This document shows positions 1,386-23,110 of a stretch of 53,791 bases of DNA, one piece after another; the first letter of the stretch is position 1; each line of letters starts with the position of its first letter. The notes under the pieces are model-generated. The model did not search any database. It was given only the letters and a program-made list of their open reading frames with translations, and had not been told where the DNA came from. The position numbers were made by a program, and so were the translations under genes. Origin of the DNA: Escherichia phage mEp010; sequence record PP180001. One strand, written 5' to 3'.

Positions 1386-1561
1386 TAACGGTAAAGAGAT
1401 CCGCCGCGCTTTAACGCTGGCATTCCCTTAACGGGTTCAGGGAATGGAGTACCTGAATCCTTCCATTTTTTAACCAGCTTAAAAAATGCTGACTTACTTA
1501 GCCCGCCTAACATTTTTTGCACTTGCTCACGATTAATAAGAATTGCGCCGATCTTATCCAT
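1343..1561 (-). CDS. xis: Excisionase / AlpA-type HTH DNA-binding protein
   Basis: 72 aa; LSKSAFFKLVKK...FPEPVK...YRYQDVISF resembles AlpA/Xis family; sits next to int, convergent and overlapping its 3' end. Confidence 0.6.
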   Translation of the reverse strand: MDKIGAILINREQVQKMLGGLSKSAFFKLVKKWKDSGTPFPEPVKGMPALKRGGSLYRYQDVISFCKSMGFM

Positions 1562-2223
1562 TATCTTTTCCCCGTGTATTCAACGTGTCCGATACATCCA
1601 TCAATAATAGCTTGCGCCATATTGCGGTAGTCGCACGAAAAATCATTGTCGCGGTTAAAGTTAATCTCTTTTGCTGCGTCTTCACCCATTACCTTAGTAG
1701 CAAGTGCGAACGCGATTTCAGCGAGCGCCTTTTCTTTCGGGCCAATGTGAATGCGGTAAGAGTATTGTTTCCATGCTATTGCTGTTTCCGTATCTGATAC
1801 TAATTTACTGTGAGCGATAGCCCAATTATCACCTAGATATGAAAACTTGACGACATCAAGAATAGTTCCACTTGTCAGACCTACACAATCAAGCCACACA
1901 CCAACCGGAGGCTTTTCGCCTACGGCCCATTCAGTTTTTTCTGGTTGCGTTTCGCAATCACGGCGTTCATCTTCGATTAATTCATCAATGATTTCACTTT
2001 CTTTATTCATACCGTCATCATCCTTATTCGATAAATTAGCGTATTCATCAAATTTCCAGCTTGCAGCCATAACCGAATAAGTGCCGCCAGTGTCAGCGCG
2101 AACACCTAATAAATAGTATGATCCAAAATTATATTCTGTGCGGCATGTTGTTACCTCAAACGATGGGTAACACTCAGGGTTAGTTCGATGGCTAATCACG
2201 CCAATTGCTTTAAGTTTATTCAT
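1561..2223 (-). CDS. Hypothetical protein (220 aa, acidic central region)
   Basis: Track ORF; GAGGA SD 8 nt upstream of ATG; last gene of leftward operon; no motif recognised. Confidence 0.6.
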   Translation of the reverse strand: MNKLKAIGVISHRTNPECYPSFEVTTCRTEYNFGSYYLLGVRADTGGTYSVMAASWKFDEYANLSNKDDDGMNKESEIIDELIEDERRDCETQPEKTEWAVGEKPPVGVWLDCVGLTSGTILDVVKFSYLGDNWAIAHSKLVSDTETAIAWKQYSYRIHIGPKEKALAEIAFALATKVMGEDAAKEINFNRDNDFSCDYRNMAQAIIDGCIGHVEYTGKR

Positions 2224-3888: not shown

Positions 3889-5304
3889 TTAAAAAGATGT
3901 GTTATTCTGATTGTTTCGTTGGTTAAAACGGCTTGTGCGATGATTCATTGACTGAATACACGCTGCGGCTGCGCGCGCCTGGTCGCATGGCAAGATATTA
4001 CCGTTGTCATCAAACCGCTGGTAAACAGTTCCAGACTTACCATGACGGTTTTTTGACACAATGATTTCCATGTATTCGCGGGCAACAGACTGCTCGTCGT
4101 AATACCCATCGCGGTAAACCATGATTATTCTGTCGGCATCTTGCTCAAGGTTGCCGGAATCACGCAGATCAGAATTATTAGGGCGCTTGTTTGGTCGTTC
4201 CTCAACTCGTCGTGATAATTGCGCTAGCGCTAACACTGGAACGCGCAATTCTTTTGCCATCATCTTCAACGACCATGACAATTGCCCAACGGCGAGATCA
4301 TGACGTTCTGCCTTAGCCAGCTTCATCAACCCTATGTAGTCAATCATTACCATACCCAGGTTGGGATGTTCCTGTTTCATCCGTTCCGTGGTGGCGCGTA
4401 TTTCCTCAACCGTTAACTGCGACGCGTCAACGATCCACACATCAAGATTAGCAAGTGCGCTCATACCCTGTCCGACATGCGCCCAACCCTCATCATCAAG
4501 TTTTACCGGATTGCGCAGGCAGTCAGTTGATAAATTACCAGCGCCAGCAATGGCCCGCTCAGTCATCTGATCGAGTGACATTTCAAGCGTGAAGAGCAAA
4601 ACGCCAACCCGCTGTTCTTTACTGCCAGGGTAAGGGCGTTCAGCGGCTGCGCGGGCAATTGCCAGCGCCAACGCAGATTTACCAGACCCAGGGCGTCCGG
4701 CGAGAAGTACCAAATCAGTAGCGTTAATGCCGCCCAACATTTCGTCGAGTGGTTCTATACCTGTTTTGATGTTGTCAGAATTGACACCGCATTCCATGCG
4801 CTTGCTTAAAACATCCGTATATTCCTGTACCGCATCGCGCAACAGAACCGGAATGATCTTATCTTTCGTTACCTTTAATTTTGAATACCGGGAATCAAAA
4901 TCTTTCATCGTCTCTTTGACGACCTCAAGCGTCCCCGTTTCCAGTTTGTAGCGCATATCGTCGATGAGTTCCAACATCTGCCGCCGCTGGTGCTCTTCAC
5001 GTAGTAGCTGTGCGTATCCCTTCAGGTTGGCAGCAGACGGGCACGATCGCGCCGTTTGCATTAGCGGTACGAAATTTTCATTACCAATCTCATCACCTAC
5101 CAGCAATGCATCGATGAGGTTCCTGTTTCTTGCTTGCGCCCGGATAATTTCAAAAGCCCGCTTATACAGCGGAATAGTGAACACTTCAGGATCAAGCGTA
5201 GCGAGAACATCTTGCGCGTTAGGAGTAAGGCCGCCCAACAGCAGCCCACCGATAACTGACGCCTCACGTTCCTGCCGTAGTGAGTTTATTTGCTCAGTTA
5301 CCAT
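3889..5304 (-). CDS. Replicative DNA helicase, DnaB family
   Basis: 471 aa; Walker A GRPGSGKSALALAIA, Walker B VMIDYIGLM, DnaB N-terminal domain. Confidence 0.9.
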   Translation of the reverse strand: MVTEQINSLRQEREASVIGGLLLGGLTPNAQDVLATLDPEVFTIPLYKRAFEIIRAQARNRNLIDALLVGDEIGNENFVPLMQTARSCPSAANLKGYAQLLREEHQRRQMLELIDDMRYKLETGTLEVVKETMKDFDSRYSKLKVTKDKIIPVLLRDAVQEYTDVLSKRMECGVNSDNIKTGIEPLDEMLGGINATDLVLLAGRPGSGKSALALAIARAAAERPYPGSKEQRVGVLLFTLEMSLDQMTERAIAGAGNLSTDCLRNPVKLDDEGWAHVGQGMSALANLDVWIVDASQLTVEEIRATTERMKQEHPNLGMVMIDYIGLMKLAKAERHDLAVGQLSWSLKMMAKELRVPVLALAQLSRRVEERPNKRPNNSDLRDSGNLEQDADRIIMVYRDGYYDEQSVAREYMEIIVSKNRHGKSGTVYQRFDDNGNILPCDQARAAAACIQSMNHRTSRFNQRNNQNNTSF

Positions 5305-5894
5305 TATGTCATTACCTCATGTTTACAAAATGTATTTTCGATTGGTAAAGAAATGCCGTGATTACTATGAAAGTTATATATTCTTTCTGCTTCTTTTCTT
5401 GCTTTCACGGCATCATCAAACGAATCACCGTAATAAACGTATATTGTTTTCTTTTTACCATCAGATCCCCTTATACCTATTTGCGCCCGCCATTTATGGG
5501 TTTTCTTGTTCCATGTAACGCCAACGCACCCACTAGTGTTATTTGATGGCATTATTTTATTTCTGTTATTTTCCTGCCTTGTTACCATTCTTAAATTTTC
5601 GATCCTATCGTCACCAGGGATATGGTTTATGTGGTCTATTTCCATTCCATCAGGAATAGGGCCGTTAAACATTTCCCAAATAATGCGGTGACGCCATGTA
5701 CAACAGATACCATTAACGCAGATAGTCCAATAGCCGCGATGATGCTTACTTCCAGCCACGCTACCTGCTTTTATTTTGTTATTTGCGCGGTTACAAGACC
5801 AATATAGAACGCCGTTCTTATAGGTAAATAAATCATCCCACATCATGACATCCCACCATTTCAGGTCTATATACAAAGCGACCAATTTCGCCAT
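5304..5894 (-). CDS. HNH homing endonuclease (HNH plus AP2-like domain)
   Basis: 196 aa; DHINHIPGDDRIENL...NNRNK HNH motif, GYW..CVNG and SGCVGVTWNKKTHKWRAQI AP2-like repeats; wedged between replication genes, overlapping both neighbours. Confidence 0.8.
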   Translation of the reverse strand: MAKLVALYIDLKWWDVMMWDDLFTYKNGVLYWSCNRANNKIKAGSVAGSKHHRGYWTICVNGICCTWRHRIIWEMFNGPIPDGMEIDHINHIPGDDRIENLRMVTRQENNRNKIMPSNNTSGCVGVTWNKKTHKWRAQIGIRGSDGKKKTIYVYYGDSFDDAVKARKEAERIYNFHSNHGISLPIENTFCKHEVMT

Positions 5895-6963
5895 AATCAG
5901 GACTGTAAATTATAACCGCCGCGCAACGTTGCGATCGCCAGCCTCCATTAGTTGAATAAGCGTCTTTTCCCGCTAACGTGCCGTGGTGTTCAACTATGCC
6001 TATAGATGATTCTATTACTGATTTATGGTGCAAATGTCCGACATGGACGTAAACATATTTCGACTTGCCAAAGTCTTCCCGCCAGTCAGACACACAAGCA
6101 GACAATAAATTTTCAGGTTTTTTGATTGTGTGTCCGTGGTGGTAAGCAAGGAATGTTTTGCCGTACTGTGTGTGGTGGACGATGGCAGGGGACACATCAA
6201 CCGTCACGCGCGGTTCATCTTCGTAAAAAGCCGCCAGCGCCGCACGTAGCCAGATCATTCCTGACTGGTCGTGATTGCCTGATAACACTTGGATCTCGAC
6301 GTCTTTGTGGTTTAACAACATCTTTCCAACAGCCCGCCGGACCGAACGGATCGCCACATAAACAAGTTTTGCGTAGCGTGAATCGCAATCAAGTACGTGA
6401 TTGCTTGATGGCGTAACTGGCAACAGTCCGTCAGTGTGAAGAACATCCCCGCCGAGAAGCAATACGGCTTTTTCAGACATCGGAGCAGCGCCTACAGCGT
6501 AGTCAAAGAAGTCATTCAATACGCGCTCAGCGATCCCAGTGTCGTAGCTCTCGCCGCATTCAGCTTTGTGGGCAAGTGCCCCGATATGCAAATCAAATAC
6601 CGGATAAAGGGCCAGGCTTTTTTGAAAATCAATTTCAGGCACTGGCACTGCCTCCGCGCGTGGTATTTCTTCCGTGAATGCGTCGCGGGCAGCTTCCATT
6701 AGCCTTTCCATTTCATCGCGGTCACGGGCTGTTTTAATCCAGCGCATGACCGTATTCCCAGCCTTATCGACAAGAACAGATTCACCAGTAACGCCAAAAC
6801 CCGGCGCGCGGCGCGTTGATAATAAACCGCGTTTCGCCAGCTTTGCGCCCAGCCGCTCGACGTTGCGTTTTGACATGCCATATTTTTCAGCGATCTGTTT
6901 ATACGTCAGACCGTTGTTATATTCAGCGATCAATTGCTCATCGCTGATTTTTCTTTGCGACAT
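5833..6963 (-). CDS. N-terminal HTH fused to calcineurin-like metallophosphoesterase
   Basis: 376 aa; HTH (LTYKQIAEKYGMSKRNVERL) then phosphoesterase motifs DLHIG, GGDVLHTDG, GNHD, GHLHH. Confidence 0.65.
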   Translation of the reverse strand: MSQRKISDEQLIAEYNNGLTYKQIAEKYGMSKRNVERLGAKLAKRGLLSTRRAPGFGVTGESVLVDKAGNTVMRWIKTARDRDEMERLMEAARDAFTEEIPRAEAVPVPEIDFQKSLALYPVFDLHIGALAHKAECGESYDTGIAERVLNDFFDYAVGAAPMSEKAVLLLGGDVLHTDGLLPVTPSSNHVLDCDSRYAKLVYVAIRSVRRAVGKMLLNHKDVEIQVLSGNHDQSGMIWLRAALAAFYEDEPRVTVDVSPAIVHHTQYGKTFLAYHHGHTIKKPENLLSACVSDWREDFGKSKYVYVHVGHLHHKSVIESSIGIVEHHGTLAGKDAYSTNGGWRSQRCAAVIIYSPDYGEIGRFVYRPEMVGCHDVG

Positions 6964-13134: not shown

Positions 13135-13755
13135 ATGAACGACATCAAAACAGCTTATTCACTCGGCAGCGAAGGCATGTTAATCACTCGCTACACTGAA
13201 GACGCAAGTTTTCATGAAGTGGAAACGAAGGATTATCACGAAGTATTGAAAGATATGGAAGCTGGCAAGTATGACGCTGATTTGAATCTGGCGTTACACA
13301 TTGTTGATATTATGATGGACGCATCGATCCGCGATTATGTGTCTTTAAACGCTGAAGAAAAAACGGCTGTAGCTCGTTATGTCTTCTGCCTTACTTTCGT
13401 GAAACGCATGGAAGAGGAATTTGGTCGCGTGCCAGTTCCGGAAGAAATTGACCCGCTGGCGTTCGGAAGCGCTGTTATTTTCCCGTTAGATGAAAATCAT
13501 ACTGGTAGCGTTGCGCTGCATTCTATGCGCGGCGTAATGAAAAGTGTCTTTGAGGCTAAGGCGCTACAGAAGTGCGTTGATGAAGGGCACAACGAGGAAG
13601 ACGTAAAGGCGATCATGCCGTTGTTTTATGGCGAAATGGTTGGTAATAACATGCGCGCAAATGATTTAGGTGTGCAGGCGGCTATATCTGTGCTTAATGA
13701 AGCGCGGAAAATGGCACAGCCAATGCCGGAACCGGAAAAACGTGTACTGCATTAA
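13135..13755 (+). CDS. Hypothetical protein (206 aa, acidic)
   Basis: Track ORF with SD; no motif recognised. Confidence 0.6.
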   Translation: MNDIKTAYSLGSEGMLITRYTEDASFHEVETKDYHEVLKDMEAGKYDADLNLALHIVDIMMDASIRDYVSLNAEEKTAVARYVFCLTFVKRMEEEFGRVPVPEEIDPLAFGSAVIFPLDENHTGSVALHSMRGVMKSVFEAKALQKCVDEGHNEEDVKAIMPLFYGEMVGNNMRANDLGVQAAISVLNEARKMAQPMPEPEKRVLH

Positions 13756-14560: not shown

Positions 14561-14797
14561 ATGGTTAAGAGCTTTTTGAACTGGTTAAAGGTGTGGCTTT
14601 TGGCTACGCTTTTTGTTTTTTTGGTGTTCAGCGGCGTCATCGTCATATTTACGCTGGCTGTGATGTTTGTTACATGGTCAGTACCTGAATTTAACGACTT
14701 TGGAGCTATTATTGCCATCGCCCGCGCTTTATTGGCTGGTAGCGCATTTATTGGTTTTTGCTGGACTGTAGCGCCTGATTGGGGTGATGAATGGTGA
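14561..14797 (+). CDS. Hypothetical membrane protein (78 aa, two hydrophobic segments)
   Basis: Track ORF. Confidence 0.5.
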   Translation: MVKSFLNWLKVWLLATLFVFLVFSGVIVIFTLAVMFVTWSVPEFNDFGAIIAIARALLAGSAFIGFCWTVAPDWGDEW

Positions 14798-15035
14798 TCC
14801 TATGGCTTTGTTCAATATGTCAGAACTGCAATTTAATGCCGTAAAAGCTGCCGCCCGCGCAGCGCTTTCTGCCTGCAAAGCGGAGGTAGAGAAAAACGGC
14901 TACAGCGATAAAGCTACGCGGATGATATTAGAAAAGCATTATCGCAAGGTCGCACCACTAATCAGCATTGAGCGTTTTGTCTGGTTGGTGGGATATTTAA
15001 ACAACCGTTGGGGAACGGAACAGGACTATTTCTAG
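14784..15035 (+). CDS. Hypothetical protein (83 aa)
   Basis: Track ORF. Confidence 0.5.
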   Translation: MMNGDPMALFNMSELQFNAVKAAARAALSACKAEVEKNGYSDKATRMILEKHYRKVAPLISIERFVWLVGYLNNRWGTEQDYF

Positions 15036-15047
15036 TGGGTGGTTATA

Positions 15048-15587
15048 ATGAAAAATGATTTTGGAGGCAGCAGCACGCCGAAGGAAATTAAAGACCTGTG
15101 GCAGACACCTAAACCAGTTTTTAGAGGAATGGACCGCGAGTTTGAATTTGTCGCTGACGTGGCGGCAAACAAGGCAAACGCATTAATCCCGCGATATATA
15201 ACCGAAGAAATGGACACGCTGCATTATCCGTGGGGAGCGGTGGCAATGCCTGGTGAATATGTCTGGATGAATCCGCCATACTCAAACCCAGGGCCATTCG
15301 TTGATAAAGCGGCGCTTGAACATCAACGAAATCACATTGGTTGCGTAATGTTGTTGCCCGCTGACGTTTCTGTTAGCTGGTTCATGAACGGCGTTGAGAC
15401 GGCAAACGAATGCAGATTAATAACGCGCGGGCGGCTGGCGTTTATCAATGCTGCGACTGGTAAGCCAGTGAGCGGAAACAATAAAGGTAGCTTGTTTTTG
15501 ATCTGGCATCCACGGTGCAGACATGAATGTATTTTCACACACATAACGCGTAAAGAGCTATATGCAAGAGGTGCAGATAATGACTAG
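15048..15587 (+). CDS. Phage-type DNA N6-adenine methyltransferase (Dam family)
   Basis: LWQTPKPVF, WMNPPYS (motif IV), VMLLPADVSVSWF, GRLAFIN; ATG at 15048 after GGTGG SD. Confidence 0.8.
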   Translation: MKNDFGGSSTPKEIKDLWQTPKPVFRGMDREFEFVADVAANKANALIPRYITEEMDTLHYPWGAVAMPGEYVWMNPPYSNPGPFVDKAALEHQRNHIGCVMLLPADVSVSWFMNGVETANECRLITRGRLAFINAATGKPVSGNNKGSLFLIWHPRCRHECIFTHITRKELYARGADND

Positions 15588-16077
15588 TGCAGCAGATTTA
15601 TTACGACTTGCAGCGGAAACAATCGAGCAAAGGGGTAAACAAAACGGCTACGACAGAAAAGAGGAAAAATCAGCGCCAAAAATAGCCACTATATATAACG
15701 CTAAGAAGGGGACAAATTTAACTCCACTTGATGTATGGGATCTATTGATTTGTCTTAAGGAGGCGCGTTTAGAGGCCATTTTAGTTAATGAAAGCGATCC
15801 TACTGACACTTTGGTTGACTTGATTAGCTACAGCGCACTAAAAGCGGAGCAAATATTGAACGATCAGGAGGAAGAGAAAAAGAAAAAGCAGTTCACTGCC
15901 GCCAATATTGCTGATGGAATAATAAATGATGGGGCTATAACAAGCTGTAAGGGATTGCCGCCTTCTATGCTTAATCCTCAATGTGGTTGTATTTCAACTC
16001 GGCTTGATTTGAATTTTGATAGATCTGAAGCTGTTCGCGACAAGAGGTATGACCCAAATGAAAAAGGTGGCAATTGA
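15580..16077 (+). CDS. Hypothetical protein, possible MazG-like nucleotide pyrophosphohydrolase-related N-domain
   Basis: LRLAAETIEQRGKQNGYD...IATIYNA...LTPLDVWDLLICLKEARL resembles phage dATP/dGTP diphosphohydrolase N-terminal domains; tentative. Confidence 0.35.
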   Translation: MTSAADLLRLAAETIEQRGKQNGYDRKEEKSAPKIATIYNAKKGTNLTPLDVWDLLICLKEARLEAILVNESDPTDTLVDLISYSALKAEQILNDQEEEKKKKQFTAANIADGIINDGAITSCKGLPPSMLNPQCGCISTRLDLNFDRSEAVRDKRYDPNEKGGN

Positions 16078-16561
16078 CAGGTTATTAGCCTGCGTTTATG
16101 TCGCCGTTTTCGTGATCATCAACCTTATTGTTAACCATTGCGGCCCGTGGGTAATTCCGATCACCACGGTAGCCGCTGTGTGTGTCAATATGATGATCCG
16201 TGACTTCTTGTTATATGACGGCGGCCTAAAATGGTCGGCTACAACATGCGCCGCCGCTGGCGCAATCACGGTGCTGATAAATTACGACGCCGGAATGGTA
16301 GCGATCGCGTCATTCGTTGCGGTTGTTTCCGGTGCGCTTATTTCTGGCGGCGTTTACCGGGTTTTACCTGGTGACTTTGATTCGAAACGCTGGCCTGCAA
16401 ATATAGCGTCCGCCATTGGCGATGCGTTAATTTTTCCTACGCTATCGTTTATGGCATTTATGCCTGAAATATCAGCTATGCAATTCATCTCAAAAATGGC
16501 AGCGGTAACGGTGATCACTATCATCATGCGCCGCTATTTCACGTTTGAAGGCAGAAAATGA
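16049..16561 (+). CDS. Multi-pass inner-membrane protein, possibly VUT/YhhQ-like (queuosine-precursor transporter family)
   Basis: About five predicted TM helices; loose resemblance only; ATGA-coupled to the cytosine methyltransferase gene. Confidence 0.35.
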   Translation: MTQMKKVAIDRLLACVYVAVFVIINLIVNHCGPWVIPITTVAAVCVNMMIRDFLLYDGGLKWSATTCAAAGAITVLINYDAGMVAIASFVAVVSGALISGGVYRVLPGDFDSKRWPANIASAIGDALIFPTLSFMAFMPEISAMQFISKMAAVTVITIIMRRYFTFEGRK

Positions 16562-17340
16562 GCAAGGCTAAACACTGGTTTAATAATTGGCTTAGAAGTT
16601 GGGTGGTATGGTCGCTGTACGACGGCAGCGGGTACGCAGTTAAAGATTGGGCGGAAGCTGGATATAAGTGCTATTGCTTCAACTATGACGGCGCAAATCA
16701 CGGCGATTATGAAGGCGTTAAAATCATTCATCCAAACATTGAATACGTTAACGTATGGATTGACAGCCATTTCCTGGTAATGTTCTCCCCTGAATTGTCT
16801 GTTTATCCAGAGCCTGACATTATCTTGGGCTTCCCTCCATGCGACGATCTCGCTGTGTCTGGCGCTCGCTGGTTCGCTGATAAACGGAAAAAAGATCCTG
16901 ACTTCCAGGTGAAGGCGGCGAATAGCGCAAAACTGGTAGAAAAACTGGCGGATATGCACAACGTGCCGTGGATGGTGGAAAATCCGGTGGGAGCACTGTC
17001 AACGCTATGGCGCAAACCTGATTTTATCTTCAACCCGTGCGCTTACGGTGGCTACCTGCCTGAAGATGACAAACATCCTGCTTTCCCTGATGTTTACCCG
17101 CCGCGAGACGCGTACACGAAGAAAACTTGTATTTGGTGCGGCAACGGACTTAAACAGCCGCTTTTTAGACCTGTAGATCTTAACTCTGGTGATAACCCTG
17201 GGTGGGCGAAAACCGGAGGCAGGACGAAACGAACAAAGATGATCCGCTCACTAACGCCGCGTGGCTTTGCCCGTGCTGTATTCCTGGCTAACGACCGGGC
17301 CATCAATCGTACTACGCTCAACCGCGTTTTACCGGACTGA
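16558..17340 (+). CDS. DNA cytosine-5 methyltransferase (short form)
   Basis: Motif I-like LYDGSG, PC motif GFPPCDDLAVSG, ENV motif MVENPVGAL. Confidence 0.65.
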   Translation: MSKAKHWFNNWLRSWVVWSLYDGSGYAVKDWAEAGYKCYCFNYDGANHGDYEGVKIIHPNIEYVNVWIDSHFLVMFSPELSVYPEPDIILGFPPCDDLAVSGARWFADKRKKDPDFQVKAANSAKLVEKLADMHNVPWMVENPVGALSTLWRKPDFIFNPCAYGGYLPEDDKHPAFPDVYPPRDAYTKKTCIWCGNGLKQPLFRPVDLNSGDNPGWAKTGGRTKRTKMIRSLTPRGFARAVFLANDRAINRTTLNRVLPD

Positions 17341-17499
17341 AGTTTACAAAATGGCGTCATTGCGTGATGTGGATCACATAATGGCGCTTTTCACCTTGTT
17401 CTGGTGTATCCATTTTGTATACTTCAAACAAGCAAAATGCTCTTTAAAAATCCGGCAGCGCTGAAATGCGTAGAAATCACCTGAAAAGGAGAGAGCATT

Positions 17500-22650: not shown

Positions 22651-22890
22651 ATGAGCCGGAATCAGAGATACCAGTGCACATATTCACGATGTAGCGCGTT
22701 TTTTAAGAATGGCAAGATCTACGAAGTCGGCGCGGCATTGGTTGACGCAAAGAATCAGGAATATATTCACGCCATTACTGACGACCAGGGCCAGTTATGG
22801 CGATTTTATAAGATGGGGTGTGGCACGGCGCTTGTTTATGCGCGTGCTGGTGGTGGCGCTTTTGCTGCGTTTTCGTATGTGGGGTATTAG
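22651..22890 (+). CDS. Hypothetical protein (79 aa)
   Basis: Track ORF. Confidence 0.45.
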   Translation: MSRNQRYQCTYSRCSAFFKNGKIYEVGAALVDAKNQEYIHAITDDQGQLWRFYKMGCGTALVYARAGGGAFAAFSYVGY

Positions 22891-22891
22891 A

Positions 22892-23110
22892 ATGACTATT
22901 TTAACGTGTCACGGATCTGATCTTGATTGTTTCGAAGACGGTTGCCAGTACGAAGCGGAAAAACCAGGCGGATTACCGAAAAACCCGTTTTTAGTAGTTA
23001 CAGACACTTACGGTCACTTATGGTATGCAGCGCCCAGCAAGGCGCGCGGCTGGTGGCTGATTCAGAATGACGATCGCGAGGTTGTAGTGGCCTTTAAGCA
23101 GGATGAATGA
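22892..23110 (+). CDS. Hypothetical protein (72 aa, Cys-containing)
   Basis: Met62 of track ORF 22709-23110, starting 1 nt after previous stop. Confidence 0.45.
   Translation: MTILTCHGSDLDCFEDGCQYEAEKPGGLPKNPFLVVTDTYGHLWYAAPSKARGWWLIQNDDREVVVAFKQDE

Follow-up and report, generated by a model that had tools for sequence, protein, structure and literature searches.

A short VUT/YhhQ-family membrane protein without a recognisable DpdA partner in the DNA-methylation gene cluster of the temperate coliphage mEp010

Results

A four-gene cluster in the early region of Escherichia phage mEp010

The stretch of DNA analysed here, the 53,791-nucleotide sequence PP180001 of Escherichia phage mEp010 (hereafter, the window), carries at positions 15048-17340 four consecutive genes on the + strand. 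They encode a Dam-type N6-adenine DNA methyltransferase (gene 1), a DUF6378-domain protein (gene 2), a short membrane protein of the VUT/YhhQ family of queuosine-precursor transporters (QPTR, COG1738; gene 3) and a compact C5-cytosine DNA methyltransferase-family protein (gene 4). Our analysis indicates that the short VUT subfamily to which gene 3 belongs is otherwise strictly coupled to DpdA, the DNA transglycosylase that is the signature of 7-deazaguanine DNA. It also indicates that a derived clade of this subfamily, present in temperate coliphages such as mEp010, is DpdA-free, has methyltransferases on its flanks and is strongly constrained.

Since six genomes of the mEp021 group measure 53-55 kb, the 53.8-kb window is considered, by homology, to be essentially the whole genome of an mEp021-like (mEpimmI) temperate coliphage. 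This group of Nus-dependent, non-lambdoid 'mEpimmI' temperate coliphages from the human gut was described recently (PMC11893012). The 2.4-kb region containing the four genes shares 88-93% nucleotide identity with mEp554, mEp515, mEp021, mEp044, mEp013 and MagusPhagus. In mEp021, its genes are labelled 'putative DNA N-6 adenine methyltransferase', 'hypothetical protein', 'putative membrane protein (6 TM)' and 'putative DNA cytosine methyltransferase'.

The list of open reading frames (ORFs) and the sequence itself bear out the location given to the four consecutive genes by the initial annotation, which was made from the letters alone. The overlaps read from the sequence, 8 nucleotides between genes 1 and 2, 20 between genes 2 and 3 and 4 (ATGA) between genes 3 and 4, fit the translational coupling that it proposed and make it plausible. 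The methyltransferase motifs on which it relied are also present, namely NPPYS in Dam (WMNPPYSNPG) and, in the product of gene 4, PPC (GFPPCDD) and ENP (VENPVG). We regard the four ORFs as real genes and not as chance ORFs, because each has many homologues and a ratio of nonsynonymous to synonymous substitution rates (dN/dS) in the range 0.04-0.24. These ratios were calculated pairwise by the Nei-Gojobori method over about 47 related prophage or phage loci for 8 genes. Dam has a ratio of 0.055, the DUF6378 protein 0.24, the membrane protein 0.043 and the C5 methyltransferase-like protein 0.094; four neighbouring genes lie at 0.08-0.15.

Gene 3 encodes a divergent member of the VUT/YhhQ family

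Gene 3 (16058..16561, + strand) encodes 167 amino acids. Alternative starts exist at 16049 and 16016. The ATG at 16058 is preferred in view of the AAGAGG motif at 16042-16047, and it corresponds to the first residue of close homologues. The protein is called 'hypothetical protein' by the PGAP pipeline in E. coli prophages and 'hypothetical' or 'putative membrane protein' in GenBank/RefSeq. It has no match in NCBIfam, and a word-index homologue search retrieves only near-identical proteins.

The resemblance of this membrane protein to VUT/YhhQ-type transporters, which the initial annotation had advanced loosely, was upheld by family profiles and predicted structure. The absence of VUT similarity in profile searches, which would have spoken against it, applies only to the single-sequence Pfam scan, where the match to Vut_1 (PF02592) stays below the cutoff while spanning positions 6-149 of the 152 of the model; family-level profiles and structure do show the relationship. 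Searching phage genomes with tblastn uncovers relatives with 28-36% identity in unrelated phages, several of them annotated 'VUT family protein'. In the family alignment, 10 of 11 members match Vut_1 (best E value 4.7e-10). An exhaustive profile search started from this family recovers 1210 cluster representatives at E <= 1e-3, and nine of the ten top representatives that were sampled pass the Vut_1 gathering score (1e-6 to 1e-15). Furthermore, a profile-profile alignment (hhalign) matches gene 3 with gp41 of phage CAjan over 146 columns (probability 96.2%, E 2.6e-9).

The AlphaFold2 model built from 96 sequences is all-helical and confident, with a predicted local distance difference test score (pLDDT) of 94.4 and a predicted template modelling score (pTM) of 0.86. 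A fold search against BFVD returns only two matches at probability 1.0, including a 'putative vitamin uptake transporter'. The predicted fold also matches substrate-binding S-components of energy-coupling factor (ECF) transporters along 137-149 residues. Profiles and model together identify gene 3 as a divergent, minimal VUT/YhhQ (QPTR, COG1738) member with a predicted S-component-like fold, an assignment of practical use for annotation, which single-sequence Pfam and NCBIfam scans miss. The short VUT family also has longer members: P0313 and P0354 (about 340 amino acids) have a C-terminal DUF5020 domain, and others of about 290-335 amino acids carry C-terminal extensions without Pfam match. 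Such fusions might hint at substrate or partners.

Short VUT genes of other phages lie beside a DpdA-like gene

Eight GenBank phages outside the mEp021 group encode a short VUT protein: PEAT2, Opt-719, AB3P2, LHE71, Phc, RCIP0319, Tbat1_6 and ECO111 5-P. In all eight, the VUT gene adjoins, and usually overlaps, a gene for a protein of 243-275 amino acids, and these partner proteins are homologous to each other. Two of them are annotated 'queuine tRNA-ribosyltransferase', and PEAT2 gp19 matches the DpdA protein of CAjan (E 4e-5) over a stretch that includes the H-G...D-S region. A hidden Markov model (HMM) of the eight DpdA-like proteins detects an adjacent copy in every one of 31 distant IMG/VR loci (L060-L090 in our numbering) and no copy in 47 mEp021-like IMG/VR loci. 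The short VUT gene thus stands directly beside a DpdA-like gene in 39 of 39 other phage loci (8 from GenBank and 31 from IMG/VR), which substantiates the view that a transporter-like gene set between two methyltransferase genes is unusual.

No recognisable DpdA was found in mEp010 either, as the initial annotation had stated. In the window, which covers essentially the whole genome, three DpdA-like proteins from VUT-linked loci had no match by tblastn, the HMM of the eight proteins reached a best E value of about 1 against all six-frame ORFs, and hhalign of the DpdA profile against 28 non-structural ORFs gave probabilities that were all below 1%. No match resembling tRNA-guanine transglycosylase (TGT) was obtained with Pfam and PHROGs for the cluster genes, or with Pfam or PHROGs for 19 further non-structural proteins. 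A DpdA encoded elsewhere in the genome is rejected as far as these searches reach. Likewise, no que or folE gene was detected among the scanned proteins, which comprise a part of the window ORFs for Pfam, or in the annotation of the mEp021 early region.

One distant locus brings the two kinds of gene into the same frame. In IMGVR_UViG_3300011586_000014, a single uninterrupted frame (L060:5324-6841) directly follows the short VUT gene and encodes a DpdA-like domain (residues 47-295, E 2.8e-95), then a Dam domain of the type found in the window (residues 325-497, E 2.4e-59). This frame may encode a DpdA::Dam fusion, or it may hold two successive genes without an intervening stop codon; in either case, these modules do meet.

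The DpdA-less VUT proteins form a constrained clade nested among DpdA-linked ones

In the 47 mEp021-like IMG/VR loci, the order Dam-DUF6378-VUT is kept with one exception, and the C5 methyltransferase gene follows VUT in all but three. The exception (L059:4914-5267, protein P0009, which carries PF05869) results from a deletion that took out the DUF6378 gene together with the 5' half of VUT and fused Dam in frame to the C-terminal part of VUT. Two relatives outside the mEp021 group also lack DpdA. The closest (P0259, locus L097, 54% identity) belongs to a different temperate phage with a module made of Dam, a 99-amino-acid DUF6378 protein, VUT and a 234-amino-acid C5 methyltransferase. The other (P0319, 46% identity) is encoded by an integrase-bearing phage, and DpdA is absent from the surrounding 5 kb. 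Here (L098:5516-6363, on a metagenome contig from ENA; also L099-L102), VUT is separated from a PF01555 N6/N4 methyltransferase gene by genes for two conserved proteins without Pfam match (136-140 and 144 amino acids) that look like paralogues and have in common a W...G...C.NL..W pattern.

In neighbour-joining trees (156 columns, 100 bootstraps), the DpdA-less VUT proteins are monophyletic in 100 of 100 bootstraps and sister to the DpdA-linked VUT proteins of T1-like Drexlerviridae in 94, and the DpdA-linked set is paraphyletic in 97. Since the DpdA-less clade is nested within DpdA-linked VUT proteins, the most parsimonious scenario is that its ancestor was DpdA-linked and that the partner was lost once.

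The dN/dS of the VUT gene is the lowest of the 8 genes measured (mean dN 0.012 and mean dS 0.28 over 40 distinct alleles). It is intact in 46 of the 47 mEp021-like IMG/VR loci. It is also found in 35 of 5426 complete E. coli genomes (about 0.6%), always fully covered and with 90-99% nucleotide identity. This low ratio rejects the hypothesis that the gene is a decaying, functionless remnant of a VUT-DpdA module. We regard this hypothesis as highly implausible, despite the loss of DpdA and the one Dam::VUT deletion fusion, since relatives with no more than 46-54% identity have also kept the gene. Moreover, the orphan clade preserves all polar intramembrane residues of the family core (N22, R48, D49, N115, D122 and K146). 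By every sequence criterion, the orphan VUT thus appears to be still functional.

The VUT gene can also do without its downstream neighbour. The C5 methyltransferase gene is deleted outright in L033; in L014, a gene for a 175-amino-acid HNH-type endonuclease (5510-6037) replaces most of it with the same ATGA overlap with VUT, and the VUT gene is intact in both. The same replacement occurs in E. coli prophages H71 and H73-H75; what is left of the methyltransferase gene is its 3' end. These cases weaken the idea that VUT function depends on the C5 methyltransferase and indicate that VUT is not tied to that neighbour. Conversely, the Dhillonvirus GeorgBuechner/Bas16 has in one early region three genes (bas16_0030, bas16_0032 and bas16_0036) for a trio made of a Dam-like, a DUF6378 and a C5 methyltransferase protein; the HMM matches of these three families have E values of 5e-27, 1e-20 and 3.7e-112, respectively. 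Unlike mEp010, Bas16 is a lytic phage without VUT, and its three genes are non-contiguous and in a different order. This trio without VUT, together with the VUT-DpdA loci, indicates that the methylation trio and VUT are separable units.

The companions of the VUT gene

Gene 1 (15048..15587, + strand, 179 amino acids) starts at the ATG in 15048, in agreement with the annotation of mEp021 gp30; a GTG at 15039 is also possible. The identification of its product as Dam holds, as it exceeds the curated cutoffs of Pfam PF05869 (E 3.6e-51, 173.6 bits for a cutoff of 28.1) and of the NCBIfam equivalog TIGR01712 (138.9 bits for a cutoff of 97). It also matches phrog_111 (E 7.7e-63), and its catalytic (D/N)PPY motif is the NPPY within WMNPPYS. 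Gene 1 is predicted to encode a standard phage Dam-type N6-adenine methyltransferase.

Gene 4 (16558..17340, + strand, 260 amino acids) has a start codon that overlaps the stop codon of VUT. By inspection against the textbook consensus, its motifs are LYDGSG (I), GFPPCD (IV, with Cys95), VENPVG (VI, with Glu141) and IRSLTPRGFA (IX). In an alignment of 26 homologues, G23, S24, P93, P94, C95, E141, N142, P143 and R230-T233 are invariant. The protein has no Pfam match and is recognised by phrog_757 'DNA methyltransferase' (E 1.7e-87). More than 7,692 homologues of 227-260 amino acids were found, mostly on phage-sized contigs of 40-55 kb. Few of them carry PF00145 (two close ones in precomputed data); for several, the NCBI name is 'DNA cytosine methyltransferase'. 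All nine matches of the family profile in the structure database PDB are C5 methyltransferases, including M.HaeIII and DNMT3B, with motifs I-IV in register; their E values (0.2-0.4) are marginal. The short C5 methyltransferase first recognised from its motifs is accordingly borne out by phrog_757, the names of homologues and the invariant motif residues, and we accept gene 4 as coding for a predicted compact enzyme of this family. As it occupies the slot of DpdA and is of similar size, the possibility of a disguised DpdA was considered and rejected: the protein resembles neither the three DpdA-like partners compared with it nor the DpdA profile, and its C5 motifs are clear. In Escherichia phage LHE71, a homologue with 48-51% identity lies on the other strand, about 2 kb from the VUT-DpdA pair (L006:1193-1872, - strand). 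It is split over two frames annotated as two short hypothetical genes, which reflects either a frameshifted pseudogene or a sequencing error.

Gene 2 (15580..16077, + strand, 165 amino acids), whose ATG lies in the overlap with the end of Dam, has DUF6378 as its sole family match (32.7 bits for a Pfam cutoff of 27.1). Its PHROG matches are labelled 'phosphofructokinase', a dubious label. The N-terminal part (about 98 residues) recurs in 217 phage records. Dhillonviruses and 9NA-like phages are among them, and one of the records bears the annotation 'nucleotide modification associated domain 1'. In the AlphaFold model, this part belongs to a confident four-helix domain (about residues 1-110). 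The C-terminal part (about 65 residues), with predicted disorder and a variable sequence, is restricted to the mEp021 group. R18, D25, E29, S31, W53, R63, D76, D80, Y84 and E90 are invariant among DUF6378 homologues. The initial annotation had called this protein MazG-like. This label is unsupported because Pfam gives only DUF6378, neither the sequence nor a 17-member profile has a relevant match among solved structures in PDB, and the acidic E-x-x-E of helix 1 is not conserved among DUF6378 homologues. A relationship to MazG finds no sequence match and is possible at the fold level.

Genomic surroundings of the cluster

The four genes are part of a rightward early operon under the control of the N-like antiterminator Gp17. 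A gene at 14784-15035, in the position of ipe of mEp021 (gp29, 'inducer of pleiotropic effects'), ends 12 nucleotides before the Dam ATG, which places the cluster within a longer run of tightly packed early genes. On the other side, nutR2 has been located immediately 3' of the cytosine methyltransferase gene, and a predicted terminator t4 and nutR2 of the Gp17 system are expected by homology with mEp021 in the intergenic region 17341-17499 of the window (PMC11893012). Near 17460-17472 lies a short hairpin, CGC-TGAAAT-GCG, whose loop is A-rich. A simple terminator scan flagged nothing in 17341-17499, and simple promoter and terminator scans gave no more sites than in shuffled sequence. In the replication module, a gene for a 196-amino-acid homing-endonuclease-like protein with HNH_3 and AP2 domains (5304-5894, - strand) lies between a DnaB-type helicase gene (3889-5304) and the gene of a 376-amino-acid helix-turn-helix protein (5833-6963).

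Discussion

A proposed methylation module with a retained small-molecule importer

We propose, with a probability of roughly 55%, that the cluster combines a methylation module with a retained small-molecule importer and that the phage has no 7-deazaguanine DNA sink of its own. Dam, the DUF6378 protein and the C5 methyltransferase would constitute a DNA-methylation module, expressed as part of the early operon, whose target is phage DNA during replication and which would most plausibly protect this DNA from restriction. Inserted between the DUF6378 and C5 methyltransferase genes and presumably translationally coupled to both, VUT would be a solitary S-component-like importer. It would descend from the phage subfamily that is paired with a DpdA-like DNA guanine transglycosylase and that presumably supplies this enzyme with a 7-deazaguanine base. 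The mEp021 lineage and its two nearest relatives would have lost the DpdA partner, kept VUT and gained clade-specific substitutions. VUT would still import a small molecule during lytic development. This molecule could be a 7-deazaguanine-type base, for which the only known sink is the host Tgt/tRNA-queuosine pathway, or the substrate may have shifted.

All COG1738 members characterised so far are importers of queuosine precursors, the E. coli protein taking up preQ0/preQ1 and that of Chlamydia queuine (PMC5372724, PMC11130926). Import of a 7-deazaguanine precursor by gene 3 is therefore suggested by its family membership. Furthermore, every virus known to carry 7-deazaguanine DNA encodes DpdA (PMC10516641). 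As DpdA is the signature of this modification, the presence of 7-deazaguanine in the DNA of the DpdA-less mEp010 is very unlikely. It has been suggested that phages with genes of the queuosine pathway and no DpdA may act on the host queuosine pool (PMC6884629). Taken together, the presence of DpdA in every known 7-deazaguanine virus and this proposal make supplying a base for host tRNA through Tgt, or a changed substrate, the most conservative role for VUT.

Several points weigh against this interpretation. Some concern the canonical substrate. E. coli synthesises preQ1 itself and possesses a YhhQ importer, so an extra import would bring no obvious benefit. Among the columns with a conservation of 85% or more in DpdA-linked VUT proteins, 14 of 37 are replaced throughout the orphan clade. 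These replacements include N36T, A37T, D44N, G132M/S, G149A/T/S and W153I/L/Y, and affect three glycines that all DpdA-linked proteins have. The ancestral substrate may hence no longer apply. The changes fit a functional shift after the loss of DpdA, and lineage-specific drift could also explain them. In CAjan, deletion of the phage yhhQ gene left the modification unaffected (PMC7544227). Other points concern the assignments themselves. The single-sequence match of gene 3 to Vut_1 reaches only 12.3 bits (E 0.23-0.24) for a cutoff of 27.2, and its hhalign alignment with E. coli YhhQ is weak (E 0.0019, probability 15%); it extends over the full length and brings the N, RD, D and K positions into the same columns. 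Transport by the short phage VUT subfamily is a prediction, as are the activity and specificity of the two methyltransferases. Lastly, in the searches that found no DpdA, coverage of DpdA2, DpdA3, DpdA4 and bDpdA was indirect only, by means of Pfam and PHROGs applied to part of the ORFs.

Other possible roles of the VUT protein

Among the alternatives, a change of substrate after the loss of DpdA can be envisaged. VUT would then serve the neighbouring methyltransferases or another need, for instance by importing a methyl-cycle metabolite, another nucleobase or a vitamin-like compound. The whole DpdA-less clade lies beside methyltransferases of three families (Dam PF05869, compact C5 and PF01555), and the clade-wide replacements, including the charged position D44N and the three invariant glycines, arose despite very strong constraint. 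In addition, the S-component fold binds chemically diverse small molecules, and substrate specificity is known to vary within QPTR. However, no COG1738 member is known to carry a substrate other than a queuosine precursor, and VUT is intact where the C5 methyltransferase gene is deleted. Proximity to methyltransferases may come about simply because early operons have a common 'DNA-modification / anti-restriction' slot, and the clade-specific changes could be drift along a long branch. We consider this explanation improbable.

VUT could also have ceased to be a transporter and, while retaining the VUT fold, act as a host-takeover, superinfection-exclusion or membrane-perturbing factor. Such roles are frequent among small phage inner-membrane proteins, the phage encodes no sink for the canonical substrate, and the yhhQ deletion without modification phenotype in CAjan (PMC7544227) is in line with this idea. 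Nevertheless, the conservation of all family-defining polar intramembrane residues and a dN/dS of 0.04 over the entire length argue for a precise molecular function, and the fold matches substrate-binding S-components along most of the protein. The simple promoter scan, which is weak evidence, revealed no independent promoter for expression in lysogens. A role of this kind seems quite improbable to us.

In a further scenario, 7-deazaguanine or another imported base supplied by VUT would be put into phage DNA by an unrecognised substitute of DpdA. Candidate enzymes would be the DUF6378 protein or other uncharacterised early proteins, for example those encoded at 1561-2223 (- strand), 13135-13755 and 22709-23110. 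The strict coupling of the VUT subfamily to a DNA transglycosylase elsewhere (39 of 39 loci), the co-transcription of the strongly constrained VUT gene with genes of DNA-modifying enzymes and the position of DUF6378 directly upstream of VUT in mEp021-like loci and L097 are consistent with it. Several early proteins have no family assignment, and DpdA subfamilies have previously been overlooked (PMC10516641). However, no DpdA- or TGT-like signal was obtained by any of the five approaches, and the four-helix domain of DUF6378, with about 100 residues, differs from the TIM-barrel of TGT and DpdA. Moreover, DUF6378 accompanies Dam and Dcm-like genes in VUT-less Dhillonviruses and is absent from all 31 VUT-DpdA loci of IMG/VR, and all viruses known to have 7-deazaguanine DNA encode DpdA (PMC10516641). 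This scenario is thus very improbable.

Relation to known systems

Phage homologues of YhhQ were already known (PMC6884629, PMC7544227). They have been noted so far only as optional accessories of 7-deazaguanine DNA-modification clusters. For instance, gp41 of CAjan, a 'putative preQ0 transporter', is like gene 3 a short protein (about 158 amino acids) that is homologous to it and encoded among phage DNA-modification genes (PMC7544227, PMC6884629). However, gp41 belongs to a full cluster with folE, queD, queE, queC and dpdA, whereas gene 3 is flanked by methyltransferases without DpdA or que genes alongside, and their pairwise identity is only about 17%.

The closest relatives of gene 3 outside the orphan clade (28-36% identity) are members of VUT-DpdA pairs without preQ0 synthesis genes. 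These pairs are found in both lytic and temperate phages: PEAT2 (gp18/gp19), Opt-719 (gp66/gp67), LHE71, Phc, RCIP0319, Tbat1_6, AB3P2 and the 31 IMG/VR contigs. Length, invariant residues and a tight, often overlapping coupling to a downstream or upstream gene are common to these proteins and to gene 3. The partner differs: it is a DpdA-like transglycosylase in all VUT-DpdA loci and a C5 methyltransferase unrelated to DpdA in mEp010.

E. coli YhhQ (QPTR, COG1738, PF02592; PMC5372724) belongs to the same Pfam family as gene 3 according to transitive profile evidence. It is longer (221 versus 167 amino acids), and the direct similarity is weak. The ECF S-components and solitary S-component-like transporters ThiT, RibU, FolT, BioY and BtuM share only 9-15% identity with gene 3. 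mEp010 encodes no ECF T or A components, and the likeness concerns mechanism and not family membership.

Biological significance

We found no paper describing a DpdA-less VUT clade, and the article on mEpimmI phages mentions only the cytosine methyltransferase of this cluster (PMC11893012). The finding raises the question of the role of a queuosine-precursor-type transporter in a phage without a known route for such bases into DNA. Phages of the mEpimmI group are common temperate coliphages of the gut and mEp021 grows on E. coli K-12, which makes them a tractable system. The answer could be modest, namely manipulation of host tRNA queuosine, or it could reveal a new COG1738 substrate or a missing DNA-modifying enzyme. 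It is conceivable, although we think it unlikely, that the DpdA-less QPTR/VUT clade has been re-used, either in a route that brings an imported base into DNA without DpdA or for the import of another metabolite that supports the methyltransferases or acts alongside them. If true, such re-use would represent a new role for COG1738 proteins and possibly a new phage mechanism of DNA modification or anti-defence.

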